Positions 1 through 63,847 of a stretch of 63,847 nucleotides of DNA are shown here, piece after piece. Position numbers and translations under genes: made by a program. The notes beneath the pieces were generated by a model. That model made no database searches. It was not told the DNA's origin and saw only the letters and a list, made by a program, of their open reading frames with translations. Each line of letters opens with the position of its first letter. Position 1 is the stretch's first letter. Origin of the DNA: a virus (Duplodnaviria; Caudoviricetes); the IMG/VR virus record IMGVR_UViG_3300033145_001771, positions 1 to 63,847 of that record; one strand, given 5' to 3'.

Positions 1-40
1 GGGTACGACAAAAACCAAAAAGAATCTTGACGCATTGCTT
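1..40. repeat. Terminal direct repeat (assembly overlap), left copy
   Basis: GGGTACGACAAAAACCAAAAAGAATCTTGACGCATTGCTT at 1-40 is identical to 63808-63847, and an ORF reads through the join. Confidence 0.95.
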
Positions 41-1072
41 GGTGGTCCGCAATTTTCAACGAAGGGCAAAGAATACTCATATCGAGGCAAATTCTCTGGT
101 CGTGAAGATGCCGAATCGTTTGGAAGTCCAAGGGCGAGGACGCAGAGGGCACGAAATAAGACGTTAATCGACCCCAATATTCGTGGATTACGACAGGCAC
201 CAGAGCCAAGTGAAGATGGTGCTTTTCATCCAATAGGCAAGAACCCAGGGGATGTTTATTTAAGCCCCAAATATATCGGCACAGATGGACATTCTAACAG
301 ACAGGGGCTCCAGCGTGAATTATCGTATCACGAGCAGAGAGTTCACGAAGTTGTTCAAACACAGGTCGCAGATTATTTAAAGAGACACATCGGCAAAGCA
401 CACTACAAGGTTTTAGATGATGTATTCGGCAAGCATAGATGGCGACACTGGATAAGAAAAGATTATAGTGGTGCGTGTTTACCGTCGCCAGAGGATTGGT
501 GGAAGCTCAAAGAGATTCTCGGTTTTGATGATGAATTAGACGAGATGATGACCGAGACTGTTTTGGTTGATAACACGATTAAATTTTCAAATAAGGGACG
601 TAATCCTGGTGACTTCTGGGCGATTAACACACAGCCGTTTTCGGGTCTACACTTTGCCGTGTATCCTGAATCATTGGTCGAGAGAATTATCAAGAGTTCG
701 TGTCCGCAGTGGGTATGTAAGAAGTGCGGGAAGCCGAGGGTGAGGATAGTAAAGAGCCCATATAAGGGAGGAACACATCATGGAGGCAAGCGAGAAGGAA
801 AAAACATTGATGGTAATTTAGACCCCAAAGCTTGTATATATCAAGGAGTGACAATTGGATGGACAGATTGTGGTTGTGACGGATTTGACCCTGGCATCGT
901 CCTCGACCCCTTCGCAGGTGCATTCACGACTGCGAAGGTTGCGAGGGATTTAGGACGCAGTTCGATTTCTATCGAGATTCAGCCGAAGTATTTGGAGATT
1001 GGTAAGAAACGTCTGAGAATTGGAGAGCAGTTGGATACGGGTATTGTAGACTATGAAATTATACGGCTTTAA
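35..1072 (+). CDS. C-terminal part of N4/N6 DNA methyltransferase that starts at 62996 and crosses the circular junction
   Basis: NPGDFW, HFAVYPESLVERII and VLDPFAGAFTT (SAM-binding motif I); CxxC insert; in frame with 62996..63847 across the overlap. Confidence 0.9.
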   Translation: MLGGPQFSTKGKEYSYRGKFSGREDAESFGSPRARTQRARNKTLIDPNIRGLRQAPEPSEDGAFHPIGKNPGDVYLSPKYIGTDGHSNRQGLQRELSYHEQRVHEVVQTQVADYLKRHIGKAHYKVLDDVFGKHRWRHWIRKDYSGACLPSPEDWWKLKEILGFDDELDEMMTETVLVDNTIKFSNKGRNPGDFWAINTQPFSGLHFAVYPESLVERIIKSSCPQWVCKKCGKPRVRIVKSPYKGGTHHGGKREGKNIDGNLDPKACIYQGVTIGWTDCGCDGFDPGIVLDPFAGAFTTAKVARDLGRSSISIEIQPKYLEIGKKRLRIGEQLDTGIVDYEIIRL

Positions 1073-1956: not shown

Positions 1957-2011
1957 GTGGCGGTGGTGTAATGGTAACACTATGATGTGGGTTCAAGTCC
2001 TGCCCGCCACA
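1957..2011 (+). ncRNA. tRNA-like element lacking the anticodon arm
   Basis: Acceptor GTGGCGG/CCGCCAC, D arm GTGT-AATGGTA-ACAC, T arm GTGGG-TTCAAGT-CCTGC; only TATGAT between D and T arms. Confidence 0.65.
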
Positions 2012-4169: not shown

Positions 4170-4617
4170 AAATAGAAGTGGTCAAAATGGTAACAATAAC
4201 AGAATGTGGAAATTGCGGATACAAGTTTATCCGAGAAGGAAAGTATACAGATGTTGGGTACTGTCCATACTGCAGCAGTAATTATCTAGTTGAGGGTATT
4301 AGGGTTAAAAAGTCAGCATGATAGGTTGTTATGAAGTTTTGTCAGTGTTTTTGTGTTTTTAATAAGATGAGAGTAAAGAGTTATAGACGAGATTAGACTG
4401 CCATATATAGTGATAATAATTAGAGGCTTTTATTGGGGGAATTGTGGATATGTGAGGTTGTGTGTGATTCTAAGAATAAAGGCGCAGGACTTTGTTTTGT
4501 GGTATAGAGGTTAAGTGAGTATTATAGTATATGGATTAAATAAATAGATGGAATTAAGTAGAGATAATAATACTGCAGCAATTTTAACTATCCCCTCTAT
4601 TTAACCCCCTTTGCGCT

Positions 4618-5184
4618 ATGCCTAAACTACTAAACCCGCCGGAAACAATACAGCGCCAAATCAAACAGGTAGTATATGAGCCACGCTGTAAAGTATGCAG
4701 CTCTCCAAATAGGGAAGACTATGAATCTCTGAGAATAACAGGCACCAGCCTCAATGAATTATCCAGGATTGCGCAGCGCGAGTATAACGAAAAGATAAGC
4801 GTTCCCTCCTTTATGGGCCATATGAAAAACCATATGGTCGTTATCGAAGGTATTTCTGAGGATGCGCTGAAATCAGAAAAAGACAGGCTGGATTTAGATG
4901 ATATTATAAAAAGCAATCTGGACTTGGAGCGCAAGCTTGTTGAGCAATTGGTTCAGGGGGATATCACAGAAGCAAGTATAGTTAATGCTACGAAAGCCTT
5001 GCTGACAGAGATAAGACTCACAATCGATATGCTATATAGACTGCGCACCGATAAGTTCAAATCAGAAGTTAATATGCAGGCGATTGTTCCAACTATTATA
5101 GAGTTAATTGAGGACGTTCCAAAAGACGTTAAGATACAGATGATTGAGAAACTTAAAAAGATGAAGCTGGTGAACGTAAGGTGA
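4618..5184 (+). CDS. Putative terminase small subunit
   Basis: N-terminal CKVC...HMKNH Zn/HTH region, helical C-terminus, located upstream of TerL. Confidence 0.55.
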   Translation: MPKLLNPPETIQRQIKQVVYEPRCKVCSSPNREDYESLRITGTSLNELSRIAQREYNEKISVPSFMGHMKNHMVVIEGISEDALKSEKDRLDLDDIIKSNLDLERKLVEQLVQGDITEASIVNATKALLTEIRLTIDMLYRLRTDKFKSEVNMQAIVPTIIELIEDVPKDVKIQMIEKLKKMKLVNVR

Positions 5185-5469
5185 TTCTATGAGCGCAGGT
5201 AGAAATTGGGAGCGCAGTTGGATTCTAATAAGTGCTTATGTCTTCTAATATGGAAAGTGCGCCGGGAAGGTATGTAGATAACAAGCAGGGTCTATGTATG
5301 GGAGGAGGAGCGCTGTATCTCCTAAGATGGAAATTGAATTGGATGTAGTTTGTATATAGGGTGAGGAGTTGGTTTTTTGGTTTGTCCCGTTTTGAAATTT
5401 TACTGGGTGGGGGTCTGATAAAATAGCTAAGTATACACTAAATATAACTATTAAATTTAACTTCAACCC

Positions 5470-5600
5470 CACTTTTACCCTTCTACCCCTAGGGTATAAG
5501 CATCCAAAATACCTGAGAAATACAACTACACGCCGACCCTCTTGGGTTAGGTGGTAAAATGAAAAAACCAGAAACACCCGATGCGCTCTTGGATTTCATA
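5470..5600 (+). repeat. Dispersed non-coding element, copy A
   Basis: TACCCCTAGGGTA palindrome, then CGCCGACCCTCTTGGG at about +50 and CCGATGCGCTCTTGGATT at about +90. Confidence 0.6.
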
Positions 5601-5856
5601 GAAAAACTAGGAAAATGTTTGTCAGGAAACCACACAATCTTTCTAAGTAAAAGACATTTCTGGGGAAAATACACAACATTTGATGAAACTAGCAGAAAAG
5701 CCTTAATCCAATCTCTAAACTTTTTCAAATTGATATGAAATACTGTAACATATGCAAAAGGAGAAAACATTGTCCATTTAAAGAGTTGATATTTTGTACA
5801 AACTTCATACCTGATTTGATTGAAATGTCAGGTAGAATTAAAAGGCCAGAGGAAAC

Positions 5857-6072
5857 ATGGTAAGGTTATCACTTACAACAATCAGACGCATAATGAAAGA
5901 TAATAGTGAGATAGGTGATATAAATCCTGATGCTGTTGTAGCGATGAGGGATATCTTAGAGGAGATAGTTAGCAGAATTGTGCCTCAAGCTAATTTATTG
6001 GCTCGACATGCAGGTAGAAAAAGACTATGGCCTGAAGATATCAAATTAGCATATAAACGGATGAAGTGGTAA
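5857..6072 (+). CDS. Archaeal histone (HMf-like)
   Basis: Aligns end to end with HMfB: IRRIMK, DA...ILEE, LARHAGRK..EDIKLA. Confidence 0.92.
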   Translation: MVRLSLTTIRRIMKDNSEIGDINPDAVVAMRDILEEIVSRIVPQANLLARHAGRKRLWPEDIKLAYKRMKW

Positions 6073-7394
6073 AATTGAGTCAATATAAAGAAGCAATCTT
6101 AGAAGCTTTAATGTTTGACAAATATAGAACTGACATAGATGCGTACACAAAGGAGAGGTTAAATATACCAAACCTATCGCCAGGCCAGTTGGAGTTTTTA
6201 AGGGATATGACCGACCTCAGCAATACAAAAGTTTTAATATGCTCGGCTAGAGGTGGTGGCAAGACATTCGCATCTGCAATAGTAGCCACCTGGTCTATTG
6301 ATATTTTGCCTTATTACTATAAAAAGCCATACGAAGTTACTGTATTGGCTGGAAGTTTTAAACAAGCAGAAATTCTTTATTCATACTGCAAGAAGTTCTT
6401 TACTAGAACAGCACTAGCGGACAAGGTTGATGGAGATGTTATGAAGACTAGAACTGTTCTAAAAGACGGCTCTCGGATAGATGTGCTAACAGCAAGTGAA
6501 AAACAGGTGAGAGGTCCACATCCCGATACTTTGTTAATTGATGAAGCATGTGAGGTACCAGATGATTTAATAAAAGCTGCTTTGCCTCAGGTATCTACAA
6601 GTTATCATGGACGTATAATCTTAACCAGTACGCCACATCACTACTTTAGCTATTTTGTTGATACATGGGAAAATGCTGAGAAACTTGGTTATAAAACATA
6701 TCAATGGAAAGCGGTTAGTTGTCCATGGATTGATAAAAAGAAAATTGAAGACGCTAAAAAGGAACTTGATAGCGAGACATTTAGAATTGAATGGGAAGGA
6801 TTGCCAACACCTTTAACAGGAACTGTATTTGATGGCGAAGATATCAAAAAGAGCATTATCGAATCACTTCCGTCCTTGACTGAAGACCCAATCTATATGG
6901 GCATTGACTGGGGGTTTGTGCATCCAACAGTTATAACTATCGTTCAAAACCAAGATGGCATATTTAGTGTTCTTCTGGCAGAGGAACATAAGCAAGCAAA
7001 GGCAACTGAACTAAGAGAACGAATCAAATCATTATATGATGAATATAATGTAGATAGAGTTTTTGCTGATATATCACATAAAGGAGAAAATCAACGGCTT
7101 GTAGATGATGGGTTAAATCTCGAAGAAGTTCCATTTACAAGTGAGAAAAGAATAATGGTTAGCAACCTAAAGTCTCTCTTTGAAAATAAGAAAATAAGAA
7201 TACCAAGTAGATTCATAGAATTGGTTAGACAGCTTGGGAAATACACATATATGACCACTCCCACTGGCAGGGTAACACTGTCCAAGGGTGATGATGATTT
7301 TGTAGATTCTCTGATGTTGGCTACAAAAGAGAGCAGGGTTATGCCCAATATATTTCATTATGCCACCATTAAAAGAGCAAGGAGGGGGATATGA
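6066..7394 (+). CDS. terL: Terminase large subunit
   Basis: Walker A ARGGGKT, Walker B LLIDEA, LTSTP, nuclease GIDWG and DDFVDSL. Confidence 0.95.
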   Translation: MVKLSQYKEAILEALMFDKYRTDIDAYTKERLNIPNLSPGQLEFLRDMTDLSNTKVLICSARGGGKTFASAIVATWSIDILPYYYKKPYEVTVLAGSFKQAEILYSYCKKFFTRTALADKVDGDVMKTRTVLKDGSRIDVLTASEKQVRGPHPDTLLIDEACEVPDDLIKAALPQVSTSYHGRIILTSTPHHYFSYFVDTWENAEKLGYKTYQWKAVSCPWIDKKKIEDAKKELDSETFRIEWEGLPTPLTGTVFDGEDIKKSIIESLPSLTEDPIYMGIDWGFVHPTVITIVQNQDGIFSVLLAEEHKQAKATELRERIKSLYDEYNVDRVFADISHKGENQRLVDDGLNLEEVPFTSEKRIMVSNLKSLFENKKIRIPSRFIELVRQLGKYTYMTTPTGRVTLSKGDDDFVDSLMLATKESRVMPNIFHYATIKRARRGI

Positions 7395-7594
7395 AGCACA
7401 GATACGACCTCAGAGACGAAAGAGTATGGCAATGTATATCAGAATTTCCTGGCTGGTTTACTGCAAAAGAAGCTTTTGAGCGTATGAACAAATATTGGAA
7501 GAAACATAAAGTAAAGTCTTCACGTTCTTTAGCCCAGATATTGCGCAGATTCGATTTAGAGCGAAAGGGAATGTATTATAGAGTTAAAAAATAA
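7391..7594 (+). CDS. Small basic wHTH-like protein
   Basis: FTAKEAFE...SRSLAQIL pattern; overlaps the TerL stop. Confidence 0.45.
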   Translation: MKHRYDLRDERVWQCISEFPGWFTAKEAFERMNKYWKKHKVKSSRSLAQILRRFDLERKGMYYRVKK

Positions 7595-7642: not shown

Positions 7643-8974
7643 ATGTCTAGATTTGAAAAGTTATCAAATGCAGCAAGGTCAATTAGGCAAACAGTTTTGC
7701 CAAAGAAGGCGGCTGTTACATTTGAAGTTGCGAGCATTTCACCAAAAAGGATTTTAACAAAGAGCAGGCTTAAAAGAATCTCTCCAACTGATTTAGAGAG
7801 GTTATACCACTTAGATGGGTTGATATTTAACGGGATTAACTTAATTGTCCATTATACGGTTACAAACTTTAAAATAGAGTGTGATGACCCCAAATCAAAA
7901 GAAGTTATTGAGAATTTTGTTAAACAATCAAATCTGCACCTTAAGATGGAAGAGATAATCCGGCATGAATGTATATATGGAAACTTTTACGGTGAACTGA
8001 ATTATAATAAGCCAAAGTCTAACATTGTTGATATTACGGTGATGGACCCCAAGACCATAGATTTTAAACGTGATAGTAAGGGAGTTATAGAACTTATCGA
8101 TAACCGCATTCCAACAGGTTATGTGCAGAAAGTTGGTATAGATAAAAGAGAGTTTAAATTTGATGAGATAGCCCACTTTAGGTTATATACTGTAGCTGAT
8201 TCTTGGAACGGAATTGGTTTAATTGAACCACAATATAAAATTTGTTTGATTAAACTAAACTTGGAGGAGGCGTTGGGTGAATCAGCATGGAGATATTCTT
8301 CGCCTACAATATTAGCTCAGATAGGTGATGGCGAAAGAAGAGAGACATGGCCTACACCTGAAGCAATCCAAAACTTTAGCAAAGAGCTAAGGAATTTTGA
8401 TTATAAAACTGATTTGGTTGTTCCATACTTTTATAACATTAAGTTTTTACAGCCAGGGACTTTAACAAACATGCGTAATCATATGGAATACTTCATTAAT
8501 CTACAATGTGCAACGTTAGGCGTTCCAAGAGCTATTTTGCTAGGAGCTGCCGAAGGAGCGAATAGAGCGACTGTAGAGATACAAGCGAAACAGTTCGCAA
8601 AGAAAATCAAATCGATTCAAGCACATTTAGCACATGATATTGAAGAACAGATATTTAGACGTATAATTGAGTTGAGGGGGTTATCTGAAGTTCCCAGAAT
8701 AGTTTGGGATGAAATTGAAGCTGAAACATTAACAGAAAAAGCGGAAAGATATGGTTTGTATGCTAAGACGGGTCTGCTTACACCAGATGATAATATTGAA
8801 AAGGTAATAAGAGAGAGCGAAGGCTTGCCACCCAAAGAGGAGCTTAGGGAATTAGCTAAACTTGAAGATAATAGGTTCATAGATACAGAGGACCTAGACA
8901 AAAAGGTGGCATCTGAACTTGATAGAGTTTTTGGTAATATGAAGAGAAAAAGCCTGAATCTATTCAAGAAATGA
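7643..8974 (+). CDS. Portal protein
   Basis: Position after TerL; IYGNFY, EIAHFR, GIGLIE, LGVPRAILLG..ANRAT, IRESEGLP motifs. Confidence 0.9.
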   Translation: MSRFEKLSNAARSIRQTVLPKKAAVTFEVASISPKRILTKSRLKRISPTDLERLYHLDGLIFNGINLIVHYTVTNFKIECDDPKSKEVIENFVKQSNLHLKMEEIIRHECIYGNFYGELNYNKPKSNIVDITVMDPKTIDFKRDSKGVIELIDNRIPTGYVQKVGIDKREFKFDEIAHFRLYTVADSWNGIGLIEPQYKICLIKLNLEEALGESAWRYSSPTILAQIGDGERRETWPTPEAIQNFSKELRNFDYKTDLVVPYFYNIKFLQPGTLTNMRNHMEYFINLQCATLGVPRAILLGAAEGANRATVEIQAKQFAKKIKSIQAHLAHDIEEQIFRRIIELRGLSEVPRIVWDEIEAETLTEKAERYGLYAKTGLLTPDDNIEKVIRESEGLPPKEELRELAKLEDNRFIDTEDLDKKVASELDRVFGNMKRKSLNLFKK

Positions 8975-9552
8975 TATCTATATCCGATGTTAATGATTTA
9001 AGTTTTGACAAAGAACAGAAGCAATTCTATAAAGTGCTTCTTGGCTATATGTTGAAAGCATTTAAGAGAGGAGGCCAAAGAGCATTTGATGAATTTAAGC
9101 CTAAACAGACATTGCAAGAAATTACTGGGGTTTTTGAAATAGAGAAGGATGGAGAAGCAGAGCGATTTTTACAAACATATGCACTTAAACTAAGTGGAAG
9201 AGTTACAGATGAAATAGAGACGGAGGTTAAGACAGAGATTATGACAGGGTTGAACAAAGGAGAAAATATTAGCAAAATAGAGAAACGGATTCGGGATGTG
9301 TTTGATGCCACTAGGTATAGGGCTGAATTAATAGCAAGAACGGAAATGGCTAGAGCAGTCAACGTTGGTAGGCTTGAAGGTTATAAGAGAGCCGGAGTTG
9401 AGAAAGTTCAGTTTATTGTAGCGGGTGATGAGAGGACTTGTTTAGAGTGTATGGATTTAGAAAATCATGTGTTTAGAAGGGAGGAGGCACCAGATTTGCC
9501 AATCCACGCGAATTGCCGTTGTACTATAGTGCCTTACTTTGAGGAGAGATGA
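8971..9552 (+). CDS. Minor head protein (MuF/SPP1 gp7 family)
   Basis: RAELIARTE, DERTCLEC, PIHANCRC. Confidence 0.92.
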   Translation: MISISDVNDLSFDKEQKQFYKVLLGYMLKAFKRGGQRAFDEFKPKQTLQEITGVFEIEKDGEAERFLQTYALKLSGRVTDEIETEVKTEIMTGLNKGENISKIEKRIRDVFDATRYRAELIARTEMARAVNVGRLEGYKRAGVEKVQFIVAGDERTCLECMDLENHVFRREEAPDLPIHANCRCTIVPYFEER

Positions 9553-12188: not shown

Positions 12189-14972
12189 GTGTTAATTATA
12201 GTATCACCCTTCAGGTTTGTTAAGCCACAAAAGGCATCAAAATGGTGGTCAAGTAACGAAGTATTTACTTTAGAGGCACTTGCTGATATTGTACCGGAAG
12301 GACGTTACTTTGTATCTAAAAAGTTTGATGGATATAGAGCTCAGTTGCATAAGAAAGGTAAGAATATAAAGCTCTATACTTCTACCGGTCGTGATGTAAC
12401 CAAACGATTCCCTTCTCTTGTTAATGATGCTACTAAATTGATTGTTACGTCTGTAATTTTAGATGGCGAACTTGTAACATATAAAAATGAAAAACCTTTA
12501 CGCAGAACTGCCGTTGCTGATTTAGTAATGGGAAAGGATGAGCCAGATGATTCTGGTATTATATTCCACGTTTTTGATACCATTTACTTTGATGGCAAAG
12601 ATGTTCATAAATTGCCACTTTCTGAACGCATATCATTACTCCACAAACTTAACCAGACTAAGCACATTAGGAAACTTAGTTTTAGTTCTGATGTTAGCAA
12701 AAATGCAGAAGAGTATCTTGTATCTACAACAAATGATTTACTAAAAGCAGTTAAAAAAGTAAGTCGATTGGTAGGTTCGGAAGGTGCTATGGTGAAAAGC
12801 GCCGATGGTATATATGAGTTGGATGGTGAGACAAGAACGTGGTATAAGTTCAAAAAGACATTGCAGGTTGATGCTCTTGTTATTGATAAGAAGCTAATTT
12901 CAGGAGCTAAAGAAACATATCAATATAGTTGTGCCGTTGGTCCAATAACAAAAGAGCTAGCTAATAAGATAGGTGAAACAGCAGTAGTTTATAAAGGCAA
13001 GTTTTATATGAAAATTGGAAAAACATTTAATACTAACGTAAAAGCAAATGTAGGAGACATTATAACTGTTGATGTTCTAGAAATAAGAAAATGGGATGAT
13101 GCTACCTATACATGGATGATTCCAAGAGTAATAGATGTTAGGTTTGATAAAAAGAAGCCTGACCCTCTATCTGTTTTAGATAGAGTTGCTGAAGTAACTC
13201 CTAGAGAGCTATCAAAAGAATTTGTTTTTGATTTTTTACAAGAAGTGAAAATATCAAGATTTTTGCAGAGTAATTATTCGATTAAAACGCTAAAGCTAGA
13301 TATATTCAAACCACCTAAGAAAAAGAAAGCGAGATATGTTATGCAGTATCATGATAGGGGGAAGTCTAGGCACACAGACTTAAGATTAGAGTGGGATGGA
13401 TTTCTAGTTGGTTTAACTTTATTTGACCCCGGACGGATTGGTAAACCTCCCAAGTTGTCTAATAAGCCAGGAATGGATGGGAAGAAGATACAATGCATTT
13501 TCAAACCAAATCAACCTAAGACATGGTTAGACTTTGAAGGATATGTGCCACCAGGCCAGGTGGGAGCGACAGAGAGATTACCTGCCACATTTAAGATTAT
13601 AGATAAGGGTACATTTTTGATGGGCACACAAAAGTCTGATTTCTTAGAGTTCTTTTTATTTGGCAAGCGGTTTAATGGGAGATTTGTAGCTCGCAAAACC
13701 GATTTACCGCCGAGGGGAGAGCCAGGAGAAAGAATTGAAGAAAGGCCAGTCTGGTTATTCTGGAAGCCAAAAGACCAAAGACCATATGTTGGTGTTGATA
13801 ATCCTACAGAAGAACAGTATGTTAAGAGAGCAAAAGAGATTGGATTACCCAATGACTATATAAAAAAATATATACTTCAAAGATTAAATAAAGAATATAG
13901 TATGTCTGATATATATGAGCATCCTGTTGTGCAAGAATTGCTAACACAACTAAGCAATGTTGAAACTAGTGGTAACACACTTCAAAAAACAATGAAAAAT
14001 CATTGTGGGAAGACATTTGTTACTTTATCACTTCCAATAACAAAATATGAAGAGCTAGATAAATCTGATTTTCCATTAGTTGTTGAAGGCATTGCCATTA
14101 GAGAAGGAAAAATGAATGGTGTTTATTATGATGCCAATGAACTTGAAAAGGGATATGATTCTTTGAAAGGGAGATTGATTAAGATTGACCACAGCGATTC
14201 AGTTCGAGACCACATCGGAAGGGTTCTAGATGTTTCATGGAATGATAAACTAAAACAGATTGAGTTTACTGGCGGAATATGTGACCCCGACATCATAAAT
14301 AAAATTAAACACAAGCTAGTTGAGGGTGTTAGTGTTGGAGTCTTTATTGATGAAGAGTCGACAGATAGAGGTCCATCAGCAAAAAACTTAGAATTTGTTG
14401 AAGTTAGTTTGGTGGAGGACCCCGCATGTCCAGGTTGTATGATTAAATTATCAGCAGTGCCGGGGGATACTAATGAAAAGATTTTATTAAGCTCAAAATA
14501 TAATAACAGTAAGGAGGTGAATTCCTCAATGGCAAAAGAAAAGAAAATTGCAGAAGAAGAGGCTGTGAAGGAAGAAACTCCAACCTCAGAAGAGATAGTG
14601 AAAGAGCCCTCGACGGAAGAAGAAGTCAAAACTACTGAAGATGTGACGGAGGCAGAAGCTCCTGCAGAGGGACAAAAATATCCAGCACCCTATCCTCATA
14701 CTCACCCCGAGCTAGAGGAAGCAATTAAGAAATTAACTGCAAGGGTTGATGCGCTTGAAAAGAAGATATCCGAGATGAGTGCGTCTGAGAATGAAGAGTC
14801 TAATGTGGAGCTTGAAAAGACCGATGAAATAGAAGAAATTAAAAATGAGCTTAAACAGCTTAAAGAAGAAATTAGCAAACCTGTCGTAAAAGCTATCAAA
14901 TCTGAGGAAGATGGTTTAGAAGATAAAGATTTTGCAAGGTTGGCACGTGATTATTTAAAGAGGAGACAATAA
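12189..14972 (+). CDS. Polyprotein: ATP-dependent DNA ligase + LigD 3'-phosphoesterase + prohead protease + scaffold
   Basis: Ligase motifs KFDG, LDGEL, FHVFD, EGAMVK, WYKFK, PRVIDVRFDK; PE motif QYHDRGKSRHTDLRLE...WLDFEG...DKGT; protease-like IDH, GVSVG, EVSLVEDPA; acidic coiled-coil tail; directly upstream of the capsid gene. Confidence 0.85.
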   Translation: MLIIVSPFRFVKPQKASKWWSSNEVFTLEALADIVPEGRYFVSKKFDGYRAQLHKKGKNIKLYTSTGRDVTKRFPSLVNDATKLIVTSVILDGELVTYKNEKPLRRTAVADLVMGKDEPDDSGIIFHVFDTIYFDGKDVHKLPLSERISLLHKLNQTKHIRKLSFSSDVSKNAEEYLVSTTNDLLKAVKKVSRLVGSEGAMVKSADGIYELDGETRTWYKFKKTLQVDALVIDKKLISGAKETYQYSCAVGPITKELANKIGETAVVYKGKFYMKIGKTFNTNVKANVGDIITVDVLEIRKWDDATYTWMIPRVIDVRFDKKKPDPLSVLDRVAEVTPRELSKEFVFDFLQEVKISRFLQSNYSIKTLKLDIFKPPKKKKARYVMQYHDRGKSRHTDLRLEWDGFLVGLTLFDPGRIGKPPKLSNKPGMDGKKIQCIFKPNQPKTWLDFEGYVPPGQVGATERLPATFKIIDKGTFLMGTQKSDFLEFFLFGKRFNGRFVARKTDLPPRGEPGERIEERPVWLFWKPKDQRPYVGVDNPTEEQYVKRAKEIGLPNDYIKKYILQRLNKEYSMSDIYEHPVVQELLTQLSNVETSGNTLQKTMKNHCGKTFVTLSLPITKYEELDKSDFPLVVEGIAIREGKMNGVYYDANELEKGYDSLKGRLIKIDHSDSVRDHIGRVLDVSWNDKLKQIEFTGGICDPDIINKIKHKLVEGVSVGVFIDEESTDRGPSAKNLEFVEVSLVEDPACPGCMIKLSAVPGDTNEKILLSSKYNNSKEVNSSMAKEKKIAEEEAVKEETPTSEEIVKEPSTEEEVKTTEDVTEAEAPAEGQKYPAPYPHTHPELEEAIKKLTARVDALEKKISEMSASENEESNVELEKTDEIEEIKNELKQLKEEISKPVVKAIKSEEDGLEDKDFARLARDYLKRRQ
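14529..14972 (+). CDS. Internal in-frame start for stand-alone scaffold protein
   Basis: GGAGGTGA at 14513-14520 before ATG GCA AAA, with an AT-rich promoter-like AAAGATTTTATTAA near 14477. Confidence 0.6.
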   Translation: MAKEKKIAEEEAVKEETPTSEEIVKEPSTEEEVKTTEDVTEAEAPAEGQKYPAPYPHTHPELEEAIKKLTARVDALEKKISEMSASENEESNVELEKTDEIEEIKNELKQLKEEISKPVVKAIKSEEDGLEDKDFARLARDYLKRRQ

Positions 14973-14973
14973 T

Positions 14974-15861
14974 ATGAAAAAATTAGAAGAGTTGGCTGAT
15001 ACTACAACCACAGAAGTTGATGCTGTAATCCCTGAAATATGGTCTGACGAAGTTGAAGCTGCAGCTCAGGCTAGGAGAGTAGCTAGAAACTTTGTAAAAG
15101 TTAATGAAGATTTGAAGAATGGTCCTGGTGATATCATTCATATACCCAAAACCGGCAAAATAAATGCTGTTGCTCTGACAGAAGGTACAGATATCACTCC
15201 AACAGCTCTTGAGTATTCGACTCTAGATTTAACACCTGCTCCTGTAGGTGCTGGAGTTAGAGTTACAAGAGAGGCTGTTGAAGAGGCTAGATTGGATATT
15301 TTGAGAGATGCTACCGAGCAACTAGGCGAAGCACTGGCACAAAAAGAGGACCAGGATATTCTTGAAGCGCTGGCTGGTGCTACTGGTGCAGTTTTATACG
15401 GTGGTGCTAAGAGCTCATCGGCAGAACTGGTGCTTGGGGATGTTCTAACTACAGACCTGATTGCGAGTGGTGTAACTGAAGTTCGTTCTGATAATTACAA
15501 CCCAGATGTCATATTTATTGCACCTGAACAAGAGAGAGCTTTGCTAAAAGATTCTCAGTTCGTTGATGCATCTAAGTATGGCGCAAATGAGGTTGTGCAG
15601 AACGGAGAAATCGGTAAGTATCTGGGTATGAAGGTCATTGTAACTACAAACCTACCAAAGGTGACTGATGGAGCAGCAGGACACAAATGTTTGATATTTG
15701 ATAGTAAACATGCTGGTGCGATAGCTATCAAGCGTGATGCTACTATTGATACAGACTATGAAGTTCTGAAGAGGAGCCATCTGCTTGTAGGTACAATGAA
15801 ATATGACGCAGGCAGACTCAACGATTCTGCAATTTGTGTGTTGGTCGTATCAGACGCATAG
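14974..15861 (+). CDS. Major capsid protein (HK97 fold)
   Basis: IPEIWS, GDIIHIP, LTEG, LA.KED, GEIGKYLGMKV; position after the scaffold. Confidence 0.92.
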   Translation: MKKLEELADTTTTEVDAVIPEIWSDEVEAAAQARRVARNFVKVNEDLKNGPGDIIHIPKTGKINAVALTEGTDITPTALEYSTLDLTPAPVGAGVRVTREAVEEARLDILRDATEQLGEALAQKEDQDILEALAGATGAVLYGGAKSSSAELVLGDVLTTDLIASGVTEVRSDNYNPDVIFIAPEQERALLKDSQFVDASKYGANEVVQNGEIGKYLGMKVIVTTNLPKVTDGAAGHKCLIFDSKHAGAIAIKRDATIDTDYEVLKRSHLLVGTMKYDAGRLNDSAICVLVVSDA

Positions 15862-23743: not shown

Positions 23744-25798
23744 ATGGTAGGGATAGCTGGCATTGCCGGAATGCAAATCATCATCAGCGCGGTTGACCGA
23801 GCTACTGGTACAATGACTCGCATCGGTGCTCAAGCTAATGCAATGGCTCACCAAGTCGAAGGTGCTAATAAGCGAATGCTTCTCTCTACTAAACAGATGG
23901 GAATGGCATTCACAGCAGTCGGAGCTGGGGCTGCAATTGCTACCGGTCTTGCTGTAAAATCTGCTATGTCGTTTGAATCTGAAATGACTGACGCATTGAT
24001 GATGTTTGGTAAGGTGAGTGCTGATACACGAGCAGAAATGGAAAAAGTAGCTATTTCATGCTCAAGAGATTTAGGCATACCTGCCGCTCAATCTGCTAAG
24101 GCGTTCTATTATCTTGGGAGTGCTGGCTTGGATACAACAACCGCCATAGGAACACTTCCAGCTGTTCTCAAATTTGCCCGGGTTGGTTTAATTGATACAG
24201 CAGATGCGGCCGAGATGACTATGACAGCTATGAAAGTGTTTGGATATGAAGCGAAAGATTCAACGAGAATTACAGACATATTTATGGAGGGTGTTCGAAA
24301 TGCACAAATAACAACAGCTGAACTATCTGAGTCATTTAAATATGTTGCTCCAGTAGCAAAACAATTAGGGATGTCTCTTGAAGAAACTACTGCTGTGATA
24401 GGGATGTTGGGGGATGCAGGTATCCGCGGCTCGATGGCTGGTACCTCATTAAGAAGAGCTTTATTGAATTTGGCAGCACCGACGGCACAACAAAAAGAAA
24501 TGCTAGATAAATTAGGAGTTAGAGTTACTGATGCAAGTGGCAAGTTTGTCGGAATGGCAAGTGTTCTTGACCAGCTAAATGAAGCAACGAGAGGTATGGG
24601 AGAAACAGAAAAAGCAGCGGCTATGAAGGTTCTATTTGGAGCAAGAGCTGTAGCAGGGATGTCTGCGATTATGGAAATGGGGGGAGATAGACTAAAAGAC
24701 TACACTGCCAAGTTAAAAGATTCAAGCGCTACATCCGAGATGCTGGCAGACAAGAAGAAAGATTTAAGATTCCAAATTGAGCAACTAAAGGCAGAGTTTG
24801 GAGCACTGGCAATCGAACTTGGAACTGTTTTAATTCCAATTCTTAAGGATACACTTATCCCAGCAATAAGAAAAGTCGTTGAATGGTTTAGCGGACTAAG
24901 TCCAACGATGAAGAAAGTAATAGCAATCGGAGGACTTTTAACTGCTGCGATTGGTTTAATTGTTGGTCCACTTTTACTATTAGCAAGTCCAATAAGCGTA
25001 GTAATCGGATTGCTTATAAAATTGGCTTCCACGTTTTATCTTCTCACTGGTCCAATTGGATTAATTGTTTTAGCAATTGGTGGTTTAGCAGTCGCTTGGA
25101 AAATGAACCTATTTGGAATTCAAGACAAAACAAAAGCGGTCATAGATAAGATAAAGGGACTTTTTGAGAAATGGAAAAAGATTATCTTTTCAATGTCGGG
25201 GCCATTTGGATTATTAAAAGAGGCTTGGGATAGAAATCTATTCGATATTCAAGGAAAGACAAAATGGTTTGTTGATAAAATATTATCAATTATCCAGCCC
25301 TTAATTGATGGAATCAAATGGCTTGCTGAAGTTACTGGAATTTGGAAAGAGCAGGTTGATGCGGTAAGTGAGTCACACGAGGAATTAGCAAAAACAACAA
25401 AAGCTGCAAATGATGAAATCGTCAGGTCAAATGAGTTAGCATCCAAATCTTATGAAAAATTGACTGAAGCTATGCCAGGCGCACCGGCAAAAGCTTGGGG
25501 CAAGTATTTCACCATGAAGTATACTCTTGGTGGAAGAGAATATACGATTGCTGGAACATCTCAAGCAGCAGTTCTTGAAGCACTAAAAGCAAAAGGACCC
25601 GGCGTTAAAGCTATAAGAATTCCGTCTGCACAAGAAGGTGGTTTAGTTACTAAAGGTGGTCTAGTACAAGTTCATCCTGATGAATTAATTATCCCACGCA
25701 AATTACGAGAAAGACCTACTACAATCATTCAAAACATAACGGTTAGAACTGATGAGCAAGCCAGAATATTACGTCTCAATCCCAATGCTTGGTGGTAG
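23744..25798 (+). CDS. Tape measure protein (TP901 family)
   Basis: FESEM, LGSAGL, ESFKYVAPVA, GSMAGTSLR, LFGARA. Confidence 0.92.
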   Translation: MVGIAGIAGMQIIISAVDRATGTMTRIGAQANAMAHQVEGANKRMLLSTKQMGMAFTAVGAGAAIATGLAVKSAMSFESEMTDALMMFGKVSADTRAEMEKVAISCSRDLGIPAAQSAKAFYYLGSAGLDTTTAIGTLPAVLKFARVGLIDTADAAEMTMTAMKVFGYEAKDSTRITDIFMEGVRNAQITTAELSESFKYVAPVAKQLGMSLEETTAVIGMLGDAGIRGSMAGTSLRRALLNLAAPTAQQKEMLDKLGVRVTDASGKFVGMASVLDQLNEATRGMGETEKAAAMKVLFGARAVAGMSAIMEMGGDRLKDYTAKLKDSSATSEMLADKKKDLRFQIEQLKAEFGALAIELGTVLIPILKDTLIPAIRKVVEWFSGLSPTMKKVIAIGGLLTAAIGLIVGPLLLLASPISVVIGLLIKLASTFYLLTGPIGLIVLAIGGLAVAWKMNLFGIQDKTKAVIDKIKGLFEKWKKIIFSMSGPFGLLKEAWDRNLFDIQGKTKWFVDKILSIIQPLIDGIKWLAEVTGIWKEQVDAVSESHEELAKTTKAANDEIVRSNELASKSYEKLTEAMPGAPAKAWGKYFTMKYTLGGREYTIAGTSQAAVLEALKAKGPGVKAIRIPSAQEGGLVTKGGLVQVHPDELIIPRKLRERPTTIIQNITVRTDEQARILRLNPNAWW

Positions 25799-48332: not shown

Positions 48333-48992
48333 TTAAACACCCTTTTTATTTGAACTCCATATGTGCTTATGCAACCGAATAAATGCCACATCCAATCTAT
48401 TCTCTAGTATATAATTAGCTATATCTTTATAATCTATCTTTCCAAAACACGGAGAGAAGTAAACTCTTGCTTTTGTTGTATATCTATTTAACACATCTAC
48501 TGCCCAATCCATATCTTCTATAGAGGTAATCACAAACTTGAGGTCATCGTTTCTTGTCAATAGCTCTAAATTCTCAAACAACATTTTATCACTCATCCCA
48601 CTGCCTGGAGTTTTCATATCCAACACAACCCTCACATTTCTATGCCGTGGAATATAGCTTATATCTATACTTCCATTCTCTTCTATATCTACCTCATAAC
48701 CCAATTCAACCAGTTCATTGACTAACTCTCTAACAGATTCTTTTTGAAGCCCTGGGTTGCCACCTGTTATTTCTACAAGCCTGTATGGGCTATAGATTTG
48801 TATGTAATCAATGATGTTGTAAATGCTTACTCCTTTGCCTGATTCGAAGTCTCTGGCATATTTAGTATCACAATAAGTACAACCGCCCCAAGAGGAGGCT
48901 AGGTTGCAACCCGCTGTTCTAATAAATATAGTGGGCCTTCCCGCGTTCCTAGCCTCTCCCTGGATTGATAAGAAAATCTCGGCAATCTTCAT
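48333..48992 (-). CDS. queE: 7-carboxy-7-deazaguanine synthase (radical SAM)
   Basis: EIFLSIQGE, FIRTAGCNL...CTYCDT, ITGG, LHKHIW. Confidence 0.85.
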   Translation of the reverse strand: MKIAEIFLSIQGEARNAGRPTIFIRTAGCNLASSWGGCTYCDTKYARDFESGKGVSIYNIIDYIQIYSPYRLVEITGGNPGLQKESVRELVNELVELGYEVDIEENGSIDISYIPRHRNVRVVLDMKTPGSGMSDKMLFENLELLTRNDDLKFVITSIEDMDWAVDVLNRYTTKARVYFSPCFGKIDYKDIANYILENRLDVAFIRLHKHIWSSNKKGV

Positions 48993-49141
48993 TTTATCAC
49001 ACGGGCCTTACCGCTAAGGTCGGCTGCCGATTCTCTTTATAGATTCGTTTGGCTCTAGGTCATGCTGGTTCCAGAGTATATATACTATCTGCTCTAAATC
49101 TCTGATACGCTGCTCCATTTCTCTTATCCATACATCCATAT

Positions 49142-49492
49142 CTACACCTCCAAATATGTGCTACTGCACTCAGGTGATTCACAGACTGTTACCCCTACAA
49201 TTTCAACATCGAGCTCACGATGCCTGAGTTCCTTCTTTAACTCGTCATATATATACTTGCTGAGATTTTCTGCGGTGGGATTCTTAATTATAGCGTTTAG
49301 ACCTTGATGGTCGAGTCTATTTATTATGTCTTTGATTATTGTAAAGTCCACAAGCATACCATCCTTTAGTTTATCACCGTTTACTGTGACTATAATCTCC
49401 CACCTGTGACCATGAACTCTTCCACATTTGCCATCATATCCGGGCAACCAATGTGCTGCATCGATATATGCTTTGACTTCATTCGCCCACAT
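49142..49492 (-). CDS. queD: 6-carboxy-5,6,7,8-tetrahydropterin synthase
   Basis: AAH, CGRVHGH, DF, LDH, PTAEN. Confidence 0.92.
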   Translation of the reverse strand: MWANEVKAYIDAAHWLPGYDGKCGRVHGHRWEIIVTVNGDKLKDGMLVDFTIIKDIINRLDHQGLNAIIKNPTAENLSKYIYDELKKELRHRELDVEIVGVTVCESPECSSTYLEV

Positions 49493-60263: not shown

Positions 60264-61619
60264 GTGGTCAGAGGCGGTAGAATGAATAAGAGTTTTGATT
60301 CTTTAATTAACAAGTGTCATTTCTGTGATTGTTTGGAAGGTATGAAAAAATTGCCAGATGAATCCATTGATGCGATTGTCACCGACCCCCCATATGGCCT
60401 AAGCCCAACAGACCATTGGCGGTGTGGTATGACAAAAACAGCTACAAAAGGATTTATGGGTAAAACGTGGGATGTTCTACCTTCAATAGAAATTTGGCAA
60501 GAGTGCCTTCGTGCTTTGAAATCTGGAGCATTTGCTTTTATAATGAGTTCGCCAAGGCTGGATTGTTTGAGTCAAACAGCTTATAAGCTACAAAAGACAG
60601 GGTTTGATATTAGCTTTACTCCTATCTTTTGGGCTTATGCAAGTGGGTTCCCAAAAGCATTAAACATTTCAAAGGCAGTGGATAAGAGGTTTGGGGTTGA
60701 AAGAACTAGAGTTCCAGCAACGGGAAATCTTCACAATTCTAAAGTATCCCATGGTTGGTCAGAAAGAGAATATTCTGGAGATATGGCAGATACAACCCCA
60801 ATAACTCCCCAAGCCAAAGCTCTTGATGGTTCATATGCTGGCTTTCAGCCCAAACCTTCAGTTGAGGTGATTATAGTTGCTATGAAACCTTTGTCTGAGA
60901 AAACATTTGTTGACCAAGCACTTAAAAACAGAAAAGGAATCACTTGGCTGGATGATGGAAGGATTCCTTATAAGGATGAAAGTGCTTGGTGGAGAATTCA
61001 AAAAGAGGGATGTTGGATTGCTCACAATATATATGGAGATAGAAAAAGATTGTTGAAACAATATGGAAATCAGCAAGGGCGTTTCCCTGCCAACCTTTTA
61101 GCAAGTGATAATATATTGGACAATGAAATAGCAAAAGAGAGTTCAAGCTTAAGTTCAATTGATAATGATGTTACCTATGACTATGAAGATTTGGCTTTGT
61201 TTTCCAGATATTTTGACCTTGACAGATGGTTTAGAGAGCGAATCAAACTATTGCCTAAGTCAGTTCAAAAAACATTTCCATTTTTGATTGTACCGAAGCC
61301 AAGCAAAAAAGAAAAAAGACTAAGAATCATATCAAGACCAAAGGATAAACCATTTCACCATTATACAACAGAACAAAATAAATTATCAGGTATTTTCCAT
61401 CCTACTGTTAAACCACTTAAGCTTATGCACTATTTAATAACTATTGGCTCACGTGAAGGGGATATAATTTTAGACCCATTTATGGGTAGTGGGACAACTG
61501 CTCTGGCCGCCCAACATCTTAATCGAAAATGGATTGGATTTGAAATTAATAAGGAATATCAATCAATTATCAAAGCTCGTTTAGCACAAAAGAGTATAAG
61601 GCAATGGTGTAATGATTAG
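60264..61619 (+). CDS. N6/N4 DNA methyltransferase (beta class)
   Basis: TDPPY, GFPK, GRFPAN, HPTVKP, DPFMGSGTT. Confidence 0.92.
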   Translation: MVRGGRMNKSFDSLINKCHFCDCLEGMKKLPDESIDAIVTDPPYGLSPTDHWRCGMTKTATKGFMGKTWDVLPSIEIWQECLRALKSGAFAFIMSSPRLDCLSQTAYKLQKTGFDISFTPIFWAYASGFPKALNISKAVDKRFGVERTRVPATGNLHNSKVSHGWSEREYSGDMADTTPITPQAKALDGSYAGFQPKPSVEVIIVAMKPLSEKTFVDQALKNRKGITWLDDGRIPYKDESAWWRIQKEGCWIAHNIYGDRKRLLKQYGNQQGRFPANLLASDNILDNEIAKESSSLSSIDNDVTYDYEDLALFSRYFDLDRWFRERIKLLPKSVQKTFPFLIVPKPSKKEKRLRIISRPKDKPFHHYTTEQNKLSGIFHPTVKPLKLMHYLITIGSREGDIILDPFMGSGTTALAAQHLNRKWIGFEINKEYQSIIKARLAQKSIRQWCND

Positions 61620-62999
61620 ATGGGAGTGATGAATATGCACCATAAAATAATCATTGGCGACTGCATTGAAGTTGTGAAGACCTTGCCGAACAACTCGATT
61701 GATTCAGTCGTTACTGACCCGCCATATGAATTAGGATTTATGGGCAAGCATTGGGATTCAACAGGCATTGCTTACAACCTCGATATGTGGAAAGAAGTTT
61801 ATCGCCTTCTAAAGCCCGGCGGACATCTCTTATCCTTCGGCGGAACTCGAACATATCACAGGATGGCATCAGCAGTTGAAGACGCTGGCTTTGAAATTAG
61901 AGATATGATTCTTTGGATTCATGGACAAGGATTTCCAAAATCGCTGGATGTGAGCAAGGCGATTGATAAGATGATGGAGTATGCTGAAAGGCGTGGTTAT
62001 TTGGATACGCCAACCGGCGGGCTTCATGGAGGGAGCGGCTTTACTGTTGGTAGATTTACAGGAAGACAATTAAAACCAGAACCATATTCTCCCGAAGCAA
62101 AAACATGGAACGGCTGGGGCACGGCACTAAAACCCGCCTGTGAGCCGATTGTGATGGCACGAAAGCCGTTGGGCGAGAAGACGGTCGCCGAGAACGTCTT
62201 GAAGTATGGGACGGGTGCGATTGATGTTGATGGGGGGAGGATTGGAGTAGAAATCATTCCAGCACAAGAAAGGGGTAATGCCATTAATGTTTCATTTCAA
62301 AGTGGTGGTTTTACTCAAGAGCATCAAGGTCGCTTCCCTTCCAACGTCATCATCGACGAGGTTGCGGCGGAGATGTTGGATGGGCAGAGTGGGGTAAGCG
62401 TTACAAGACCCCATGACGGAGATGGAAAGTTATTAGACACTCGCCAAGTGGGGTGGGGATTCAAGCGATTACCATGTGATATTTCGGACTCTGGCGGTGC
62501 CTCCCGCTTCTTCTACGTCGCAAAAGCATCGGCGAAAGAACGCTGGTTCGTGTGCAAGGTCTGTGGCGATGCATACAACGACAGGTCGAAGCACGAAAAA
62601 CACTCGATGCACTGCGATGATTGTGGGGTGGATTTCCAACCGTCGTTTACGTTGGGCACCGCTCTATGTGTGGCAGAAACAGGAGATACAAGAATACCAA
62701 AAAATCCTACCATTCACGATGACCACAACACGCACTCCAACCTAATCGGACACCCGACGCAGAAACCGCTCAAACTCATCGAATACCTTGTTAAATTGGT
62801 CACGCCACCAGATGGCACAGTTTTAGACCCGTTCTTGGGGAGTGGTACGTTGACGGTGGCGGCAAGAAACTTAGGTTTTAATTCTATCGGCATCGAGCAG
62901 GACGATACGTGGATTCCCGTTTATAGACGTCGGTTAAGGTTGAACGAGCAACTCCCAACAGGCGATGTAACGTATGAAATTGTGAGGTTCCAAGAATGA
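61620..62999 (+). CDS. N6/N4 DNA methyltransferase (beta class) with Zn-finger insert
   Basis: TDPPY, GFPKS, GRFPSN, CKVC/CDDC, HPTQKP, DPFLGSGT. Confidence 0.92.
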   Translation: MGVMNMHHKIIIGDCIEVVKTLPNNSIDSVVTDPPYELGFMGKHWDSTGIAYNLDMWKEVYRLLKPGGHLLSFGGTRTYHRMASAVEDAGFEIRDMILWIHGQGFPKSLDVSKAIDKMMEYAERRGYLDTPTGGLHGGSGFTVGRFTGRQLKPEPYSPEAKTWNGWGTALKPACEPIVMARKPLGEKTVAENVLKYGTGAIDVDGGRIGVEIIPAQERGNAINVSFQSGGFTQEHQGRFPSNVIIDEVAAEMLDGQSGVSVTRPHDGDGKLLDTRQVGWGFKRLPCDISDSGGASRFFYVAKASAKERWFVCKVCGDAYNDRSKHEKHSMHCDDCGVDFQPSFTLGTALCVAETGDTRIPKNPTIHDDHNTHSNLIGHPTQKPLKLIEYLVKLVTPPDGTVLDPFLGSGTLTVAARNLGFNSIGIEQDDTWIPVYRRRLRLNEQLPTGDVTYEIVRFQE

Positions 63000-63847
63000 C
63001 ACATCATCGCATCATCATCGGAAACTGCATCGAGGCGATGAAGACGATACCAGATGAAAGCGTCAATCTGGTGGTAACGTCGCCTCCGTACTGGGGCCTG
63101 CGAACGTATGGCGAAGAGGCAGTAACGATTTGGGGTGGTGACCCAGACTGCGAGCACGTGTGGAGAGAAGAGAAGGTGACTCTCGCTCACGAGAATCGCA
63201 ACTTCCAGAAGGGTACACAAGAATCGGTTCACGGCAAGAAGGGAACGACATACATCAAAAAGTTCGATGATAAATCATCGGGATTCTGCCAGAAGTGCGG
63301 TGCTTGGCGAGGACAACTGGGGTTAGAACCCACATGGCAGATGTATGTTGACCACCTCGTTGAGGTGTCCAGAGAGATAAAGAGGGTGCTCAGAAAGGAT
63401 GGTTCGTATTATTTGAATTTGGGGGATACGTATGCTGGGAGTGGAAAGGGAAGTTATGGCCCACCAGACCCAAAATATCCACAAGGACGGCCAGGTGGTG
63501 ATTGGATTCCGCCGCACAGAGCCAAAAGTCACCCAGTTGATAAAGTTACTGTTTCAAAACAAAAACTCCTCATTCCGTATCGGGTTGCGATTGCGTTGCA
63601 GGAGGATGGCTGGATTTGTCGCAATGATATTACATGGTACAAGCCAAACTCGATGCCGTCGAGCGTGAGGGATAGGTTGACGACCACAACCGAGAGGATT
63701 TTTCACTTCGTTAAGAGTCGGCGGTATTTTTACGATTTGGATGCGATACGGGTGCCACATAAAACGTCTATTGAAGATTTAGAGCGAAGGATAAACGCAG
63801 ATAGATTGGGTACGACAAAAACCAAAAAGAATCTTGACGCATTGCTT
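62996..63847 (+). CDS. N4/N6 DNA methyltransferase, N-terminal part (continues at 41..1072)
   Basis: MTHHRIIIGNC, VTSPPYWGLR, GQLGLE, LNLGDTY, WYKPNSMP, YFYDLDAIR; ATG overlaps the previous TGA. Confidence 0.9.
   Translation, partial: MTHHRIIIGNCIEAMKTIPDESVNLVVTSPPYWGLRTYGEEAVTIWGGDPDCEHVWREEKVTLAHENRNFQKGTQESVHGKKGTTYIKKFDDKSSGFCQKCGAWRGQLGLEPTWQMYVDHLVEVSREIKRVLRKDGSYYLNLGDTYAGSGKGSYGPPDPKYPQGRPGGDWIPPHRAKSHPVDKVTVSKQKLLIPYRVAIALQEDGWICRNDITWYKPNSMPSSVRDRLTTTTERIFHFVKSRRYFYDLDAIRVPHKTSIEDLERRINADRLGTTKTKKNLDALL
63808..63847. repeat. Terminal direct repeat (assembly overlap), right copy
   Basis: Identical to 1-40. Confidence 0.95.

Follow-up and report, generated by a model that had tools for sequence, protein, structure and literature searches.

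The gene directly upstream of the large terminase gene (terL) in this tailed-virus genome encodes a true HMf-type histone. As read from its sequence, the viral histone keeps the R-D clamp, and the R-T pair of the DNA-contacting loops is replaced by a D-R pair. By comparison with related loci, its gene is the last of a private, lineage-specific three-gene insertion in the translationally coupled slot before terL. A captured, long-diverged histone is the best reading of its origin. With a probability of roughly 0.55, we consider that this captured HMf-type histone coats the replicated viral DNA or competes with the host histones late, with an altered grip on the DNA.

Virus genome and likely host

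The window, that is, the whole stretch of DNA that was analysed, is a virus record of 63,847 bp with direct terminal repeats (DTR) and a completeness of 100% (CheckV); the two ends of the record have an exact 40-bp repeat in common. The head and tail genes encode TerL, a portal protein, a MuF-like protein, an HK97-type capsid protein and a tape measure protein (Table 1). The replication genes encode a family-B polymerase (PolB), an ATP-dependent ligase, RNase HII and an ERCC4/XPF-HhH nuclease, and an anaerobic ribonucleotide reductase (NrdD) and several DNA methylases are also encoded. The best named GenBank relatives of TerL are those of an Altiarchaeum virus (25.6% identical, E 3e-16) and of Halogranum tailed virus 1 (HGTV-1, 26.1%), and some other TerL relatives carry bacterial MAG labels. 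The nearest TerL relatives, P0015 and P0016, are 49% and 50% identical, respectively. Judging from these sequences, an archaeal host is likely because of the type of the histone, the best named TerL matches and the set of XPF, RNase HII and PolB genes. The cellular histones most similar to it (40-49% identity) come from many archaeal phyla, with Hadarchaeota, Altiarchaeales, Methanobacteriota and Bathyarchaeia among the groups represented. Searches of 61 genomes of the Altiarchaeales phylum showed no related provirus, the TerL search giving one match with an identity of 27%.

Several further features were observed in the genome. An Rfam tRNA match (42.9 bits) at positions 1957-2011 (+) covers 55 nt only, is not called by ARAGORN and may represent part of a tRNA or an unusual tRNA-like element. 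Adjoining the polymerase region are genes for a PTPS/QueD-like and a radical-SAM protein. Three to four N6/N4 DNA methylase genes are present, one of them spanning the record ends, and the virus may heavily modify its own DNA; the positions of these methylase, PTPS/QueD-like and radical-SAM genes are 48333-49492 (-), 60264-63847 and 2-1072 (+). A 927-aa ORF at 12189-14972 (+) with an N-terminal ATP-dependent DNA ligase domain lies directly 5' of the major capsid gene, which is an odd site for a ligase.

Table 1. Packaging, head and tail genes of the virus and the elements of the insertion upstream of terL
Feature	Position	Strand	Description and evidence
TerS-like gene, 188 aa	4618..5184	+	CxxC...HxxxH knuckle, HTH-like N-domain, long helical hairpin
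Non-coding spacer, 374 bp	5185..5558		5' end of the insertion; AT-rich TATA-like stretches at ~5430-5470
orf59, small protein	5559..5738	+	First cassette gene; GGTGG SD-like motif upstream; no family match
orf42, small Cys-rich protein	5735..5863	+	CxxC-x5-C-x7-C; ATGA overlap with orf59; ATGGTAA overlap with the histone gene (5857-5863)
Variant HMf-type histone, 71 aa	5857..6072	+	Pfam, phmmer, AF2 model, Foldseek
Large terminase subunit TerL, 442 aa	6066..7394	+	Terminase_6C E 6.3e-9; Terminase_6N E 2.1e-6; PHROG 2 E 4e-38
Portal protein, Mu-type, head-packaging operon	7643..8974	+	Pfam Portal_Mu E 1.2e-15
MuF-like gene, after portal	8971-9552		E 3.3e-20
HK97-type capsid protein (MCP)	14974-15861
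Tape measure	23744-25798

Identity and fold of the viral histone

The histone ORF begins with an ATG codon, and a GAGG Shine-Dalgarno-like motif is located 5 nt upstream. The protein matches the Pfam families CBFD_NFYB_HMF (PF00808, E 5.9e-12, 46.1 bits with a cut-off of 21.4) and Histone (PF00125, E 8e-11). Its best solved relatives in phmmer searches are HMfB (1a7w, E 1.1e-8) and HMfA (E 2.8e-8), both alignments covering residues 4-70; the HMfB match lies well inside the limit of 1e-5 by which Liu et al. (2025) recognise HMfA/B-like histones on Caudoviricetes genomes of IMG/VR. The alignment with HMfB contains a single one-residue gap, which is located in L1, the viral L1 being longer by one residue.

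The AF2 model of the histone has a pLDDT of 95.1 and consists of helices at residues 6-16, 24-51 and 59-70. It has the archaeal nucleosomal fold, α1-L1-α2-L2-α3 within ~65-70 aa, including a full-length α3. Structural comparisons with Foldseek showed that the closest structure is HMfB (1a7w), with TM-scores of 0.87/0.90, an r.m.s.d. of 1.2 Å over 68 columns and 41% identity, and that the second match is the HMfB-DNA structure (5t5k). The HMf-like histone that the initial annotation had placed here is thus borne out by the Pfam match, by phmmer and by the confidence and Foldseek scores of the model.

Residue changes in the L1 and L2 loops

Comparison of the two loops with those of HMfB showed that E18/R19/V20/S21 of L1 (ERVS) correspond to G20/D21/I22/N23 (GDIN) in the viral histone and that R52/K53/T54/I55/K56 of L2 (RKTIK) correspond to R54/K55/R56/L57/W58 (RKRLW). 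Among the DNA-contact residues, R19 is changed to D21, T54 to R56 and K56 to W58. The residues of the four-helix bundle that would connect two dimers (L46/H49/D59/L62) are kept in the aligned sequence as L48/H51/D61/L64. The R-D clamp (R52-D59) is kept as R54-D61, and both of its columns are near-invariant among the gathered singlets. The loop substitutions with the reading of the R19/T54 pair as D/R, as well as the retention of the tetramer and clamp residues, had been claimed from the sequence before, and they are exact in the HMfB alignment. R10/R11, K14 and K55 are kept, and the net charge counted from the sequence is about +5.

A 2026 survey (PMC13260811) counts four features as signatures of all histones, namely the RKTV motif, the RV motif of L1, the R-T pair and the R-D clamp. 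It describes the L1 arginine as entering the minor groove, where it is steadied by the L2 threonine. The viral histone departs from these signatures in both loops. In L2, the RKTV motif reads R54-K55-R56-L57, with the threonine changed to arginine, and in L1 the RV motif and the arginine of the RT pair read D21-I22.

These changes are rare. We compared 144 singlet histones, a sample that leans to canonical sequences, as 120 of them were gathered as top matches of a consensus profile. Of these, 141 have R19 and 142 have T54, and tryptophan at position 56 is unique to the viral histone. The only other T54R singlet among the 144 is P0050, a protein of 73 aa from a 1241-bp contig, which has RKR in L2 and has also lost the L1 arginine (SPGAFTP). 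With the query left out, the L1 arginine is lost in 1/1 sequences with the L2 arginine gained and in 1/142 of the others, an association that is suggestive at most. The pattern in P0050 hints at a compensatory pair. A DNA pattern for the altered loop, HAGRKR-x4-D[IV], which overlooks variants such as HANRKR, gave matches in 0/329 genomes of the Methanosphaera stadtmanae phylum and in 0/61 genomes of the Altiarchaeales phylum (HAGRKR in total 0/390 archaeal genomes). The canonical HAGRKT version of the pattern gave 187 matches, distributed over 61/61 genomes of the Altiarchaeales phylum. The prospect raised with the initial annotation, that the same substitutions might be common in cellular histones, is contradicted by these counts.

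The insertion between the TerS-like gene and terL

In all 11 of the nearest related loci for which sequence upstream of terL is available (TerL identities of 33-43%), a TerS-like gene abuts terL, its stop codon being located between -32 and +12 nt from the terL start. The abutting ORFs have 176-213 residues and are homologous to the TerS-like gene of the present virus (blastp E 8e-17 to 9e-5). Here, 881 bp separate the stop of the TerS-like gene (5184) from the start of terL (6066), and the interval is filled by the spacer, orf59, orf42 and the histone gene. None of these three genes has a homologue in the 11 relative loci. As the nearest relatives hold the conserved TerS-like gene in that slot, the histone gene was acquired here by insertion. 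Searches with orf59 gave no match in Pfam, PHROG or Atlas, and those with orf42 gave none in Pfam or PHROG and only unnamed clusters in Atlas.

The TerS-like gene is so called on its position and predicted architecture. Across its family, the C-x2-C...H-x3-H motif is invariant or nearly so, and searches of Pfam and PHROG gave no match. The AF2 model has a pLDDT of 73.8 overall and of 84-97 in the N-domain. The top 10 Foldseek matches of the model in the PDB are all small terminases of G20c/P74-26, though weak ones (E 0.45-1.5), and the VIA matches are generic helical hairpins with Z-scores of 7-9, among which values of 7.1-7.6 are not discriminating. Replacement of TerS by the histone was also considered and is ruled out by the conserved TerS-like gene upstream; whereas TerS has an N-terminal HTH DNA-binding domain with a helical oligomerisation core and is conserved next to terL, the viral protein shows a histone fold and is missing from 80/80 TerL-related loci.

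The genes of the insertion are connected by a chain of overlapping stop and start codons (Table 1), which ends with GTGGTAA between the histone gene and terL. This last overlap is 7 nt long if terL starts at GTG 6066, and its form matches that of the junction between orf42 and the histone gene. If terL starts instead at TTG 6075, which is preceded by an AGTGGT motif, the two genes would be separated by 2 nt. ATG 6111 is unlikely as the start because the TerL homologues carry 13 or more residues before the conserved YR motif. Thus, the overlap of the histone end with the TerL start, as initially described, holds with the GTG start but not with the TTG start.

The spacer contains the only two copies of GAGCGCAG in the genome (5191 and 5210), which are 19 nt apart and located just after the TerS-like stop. 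The GAGCGCAG pair covers 5191-5217, and a near-copy, GGAGCGCTG, follows 98 nt farther along, at 5307-5315. Two copies of GAGCGCAG anywhere are reached in 4/100 shuffles. The repeat could be a candidate protein-binding (pac or operator) repeat. Examined as RNA, the spacer matches no Rfam family and has a fold z-score of +0.45, indicating no special structure. A look-up of sequencing runs for positions 4600-7400 gave none, RNA data included.

Histones and terminases in other viruses

A total of 80 viral loci with TerL relatives were collected, 79 of which have a TerL ORF; 68 of these 79 have at least 700 nt upstream. A histone profile search of all their ORFs found a histone in 0/80 loci. When TerL and the histone were each used as a single query against viral contigs, no relative was obtained, and a tblastn search with the histone against 50,697 GenBank phage records gave no match at E<=0.01. 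A metagenome scan with the alignment of the query, P0041 and P0047 gave 168 pattern matches, 0 of which were confirmed. In some TerL relatives, the ORF is 754-798 aa long (L006 2142-4406, L010 1831-4227 and L012/L013 4881-7193) and matches the present TerL in two blocks, which suggests that these ORFs carry a large insert, perhaps an intein.

Two histone-alignment scans of viral contigs yielded 11 further loci (L082-L091 and L173), a set that is incomplete because the patterns were built around the RKT/RKR motif of L2. Their histones are HMf-type singlets of 63-83 aa. All of them keep RKT in L2, partly by selection, as the scan patterns centred on RKT/RKR. The arginine aligned with HMfB R19 is kept in 9/12 histones on the 11 loci; it is a lysine in L082_5001 and a proline in L089 and L090. 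A search of viral contigs for an RKR-type histone by DNA pattern gave one match, which is out of frame inside a 494-aa ORF and is no histone.

To establish the contexts of these histones, ORFs were mapped and 20 selected ones, mostly of ~300 aa or more, were searched against Pfam. In L085, TerL is followed by a 477-aa ORF and then by the histone. L082 has two tandem HMf-type histones (4726-4977 and 5001-5204; the first matches PF00808 with E 2.6e-18) located 3.1 kb upstream of TerL. The histone of L086 lies on the opposite strand within the head module (protease and capsid). The histones of L088 and L090 are near ribonucleotide reductases, and that of L089 is near a SNF2 helicase. In L173 (1274-1680), the viral contig whose histone is closest to the query in the tree, a 4-nt overlap links the histone gene with a gene for a ribbon-helix-helix (CopG) protein, and the surroundings resemble a regulatory region. 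Among the ORFs scanned in L083, L084, L087 and L091, there is no packaging gene. In 0/11 of these loci does the histone abut terL on its upstream side.

A conserved linkage of the histone to terL, by which the initial annotation could be tested, is therefore contradicted by both the TerL-related loci (0/80) and the other viral histone loci (0/11). The proposed coupling of the histone to the terminase stands in the sense that the gene lies directly before terL in the same operon, but not as a conserved functional link. By comparison with these loci, a functional coupling is not supported, and the reading as a terminase-coupled gene is supported in part. The predicted complex of a histone dimer with TerL scored 0.15, against a mark of 0.32, which speaks neither for nor against a contact.

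Divergence and origin

The histone forms a singleton cluster at a 90% identity threshold, the best relatives having 44-49% identity to it. In an exhaustive HMMER search of 1.84 billion representatives, only 29 proteins reached E<=1e-3, and apart from the histone itself no protein reached E<=1e-10. In quick maximum-likelihood trees, the end branch of the histone has a length of 0.68-0.81 vs. a median of 0.16-0.17. The tree alignment has 73 columns and resolves little. It groups the histone with L173 from a viral contig and with the metagenomic P0047, P0041 and P0179 (SH-aLRT 94.7, just below the 95 mark), so that this clade is tentative. These four relatives share the RK-x-L-[YMW] form of L2 with the query but keep R19 and T54. 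The viral label requires 11 changes for 13 rows, suggesting many separate captures. The histone gene has a GC content of 0.37 and a GC3 of 0.29, compared with a GC content of 0.375 for the genome and a GC3 of 0.305 for terL. Because these values equal those of the genome and terL, the histone gene is a long resident, neither a recent arrival nor a host contamination.

Proposed function of the viral histone

In the reading that we favor, the histone would be made late and in step with TerL through translational coupling, as suggested by the position of its gene, the overlapping junctions and the SD-like motifs. The kept core, clamp and bundle residues would allow ordinary histone-fold dimers and probably tetramers to form. 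DNA would probably still be bound, considering the positive net charge, R10/R11, K14, K55 and the new R56. By homology to R19 and T54 of HMfB, D21 and R56 from different chains are expected to lie side by side, and the minor-groove 'sprocket' arginine may therefore come from L2 (R56), where it would be held by D21 of the partner's L1. This predicted rewiring is based on the HMfB R19/T54 homology and on one other natural sequence, P0050. Alternatively, the placement of D21 by the DNA backbone together with a D21-R56 salt bridge could abolish the DNA contact of the L1L2 site, which would make the protein a weak binder or a non-binder.

The histone would most likely coat replicated viral DNA or compete with the host histones, with an altered and probably weaker grip during packaging. 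Its tie to terL would be one of timing and operon position, with no conserved physical partnership and without replacing TerS. A terminase-packaged head takes naked DNA; the histone should therefore act in the cell and not in the capsid. The roles put forward in the initial annotation, namely to remodel or cap host hypernucleosomes, to mark the pac region or to serve as a packaging cofactor, are putative.

A poison or capping subunit would also fit the loss of the DNA-gripping RT pair from a protein that retains L48/H51/D61/L64 and the R-D clamp. Such a subunit would heterodimerise or co-polymerise with the host histones and weaken or end hypernucleosomes late, thereby opening host or viral chromatin. 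The L1 loop, longer by one residue than in most relatives, and the long branch, which suggests changed constraints, point in the same direction. We consider such a role unlikely. With an identity of 40-49% to any cellular histone, specific mixed dimers are less certain, and the positive net charge together with R56 favours a protein that still binds DNA over a pure poison.

A somewhat fainter prospect is that the captured histone is dedicated to handling DNA late, for packaging in a host that has histones of its own. It would bend or wrap pac for the TerS-like/TerL complex, as IHF does for lambda, or take the place of tightly gripping host histones on concatemers, which would let the motor strip it off. 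Either would involve a re-engineered L1L2 site in which the minor-groove arginine, R56, is positioned by the L1 aspartate. If true, evolution would have arrived at a second solution besides the near-universal histone R-T pair.

Slimmer again are the chances of a packaging cofactor that bends or wraps pac/cos DNA for the assembly of the TerS-like protein with TerL, in the way that host IHF/HU act at the cos site of phage lambda, or that contacts the terminase directly. Consistent with it, the gene occupies the translationally coupled slot before terL that belongs to TerS in 11/11 relatives, and the GAGCGCAG pair is located just after the TerS-like gene. Moreover, TerL is within 3.2 kb in 2/11 of the other viral histone loci (L085 and L082), and the L086 histone lies inside the head module. 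However, the linkage is conserved neither in the 80 TerL-related loci nor by abutment in the 11 other histone loci, and a terL no farther than 3.2 kb away for 3/12 viral histones is, by a rough estimate, not clearly above chance. The conserved TerS-like gene also leaves no DNA-recognition role vacant.

Least probable is a moron-like passenger cassette drifting after capture, with the D/R changes as decay of DNA binding, which the singleton with its long branch, the loss of two near-universal DNA-contact signatures and the absence of the insertion from all relatives would suit, but against which stand the intact ORF, the kept hydrophobic core, R-D clamp and interface residues, the very confident AF2 model, the fully ameliorated codon composition, the preserved SD motif and coupled junctions, and the recurrence in P0050 of L1-Arg loss with L2-Arg gain, which looks compensatory and not random.

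How tailed viruses package DNA that is histone-wrapped in the host cell is an open question in archaeal virology. A virus histone that would be expressed in step with the terminase, its assembly surfaces predicted to be intact and the R-T DNA-contact pair inverted, offers a concrete candidate. Together with P0050, the D21/R56 pair is a natural experiment on whether the other loop can supply the sprocket arginine. Should its DNA binding prove to be that of an ordinary HMf histone, the gene would be one more captured from a host.

Comparison with known systems

The viral histone closely resembles HMfB and HMfA of Methanothermus fervidus (1a7w, 1b67 and 5t5k) in fold, length and the full-length α3, with TM-scores of 0.87-0.90 and identities of 39-42%. 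It has L46/H49/D59/L62, the R52-D59 clamp, R10, K13 and K53 of HMfB in common. It differs from HMfB in having Asp for R19, Arg for T54, Trp for K56 and one additional residue in L1, and in the location of its gene inside a virus packaging operon.

Compared with TerS, the viral protein is likewise a small, putatively DNA-binding protein coded right before terL and coupled to it. Unlike TerS, it has a histone fold with no HTH and oligomerisation ring, a separate TerS-like gene is present in the same genome, and the protein is absent in the relatives.

The best structural matches of the viral histone in BFVD are the histones of Marseilleviridae and Medusavirus (TM-scores of 0.67-0.80, E 2e-3 to 2e-2). 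Those histones are reported (PMC8357426) to differ from the present one in being eukaryote-like doublets or full sets and in packaging the genome as nucleosomes in virions.

The passages seen of Schwab et al. (2024) describe only 'phage histones' with a truncated α3, and those of Talbert et al. (2022) and Irwin & Richards (2024) contain none on tailed or archaeal viruses. In the main texts of the literature searched, no paper was found that pairs a histone with a terminase in archaeal tailed viruses or that reports the D-R pair; supplements may list this record. For Caudoviricetes genomes of IMG/VR, histone-fold proteins of the HMf-like kind have already been described (Liu et al. 2025, hLife, PMC13681535). 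The histones described there are, like the present one, singlets on IMG/VR tailed-virus genomes and are thought to have been acquired from hosts. The text of that study has 0 occurrences of terminase and mentions no change in the RT pair. Thus, HMf-like histones of viruses are known, whereas the D/R variant and the position before terL are unusual.
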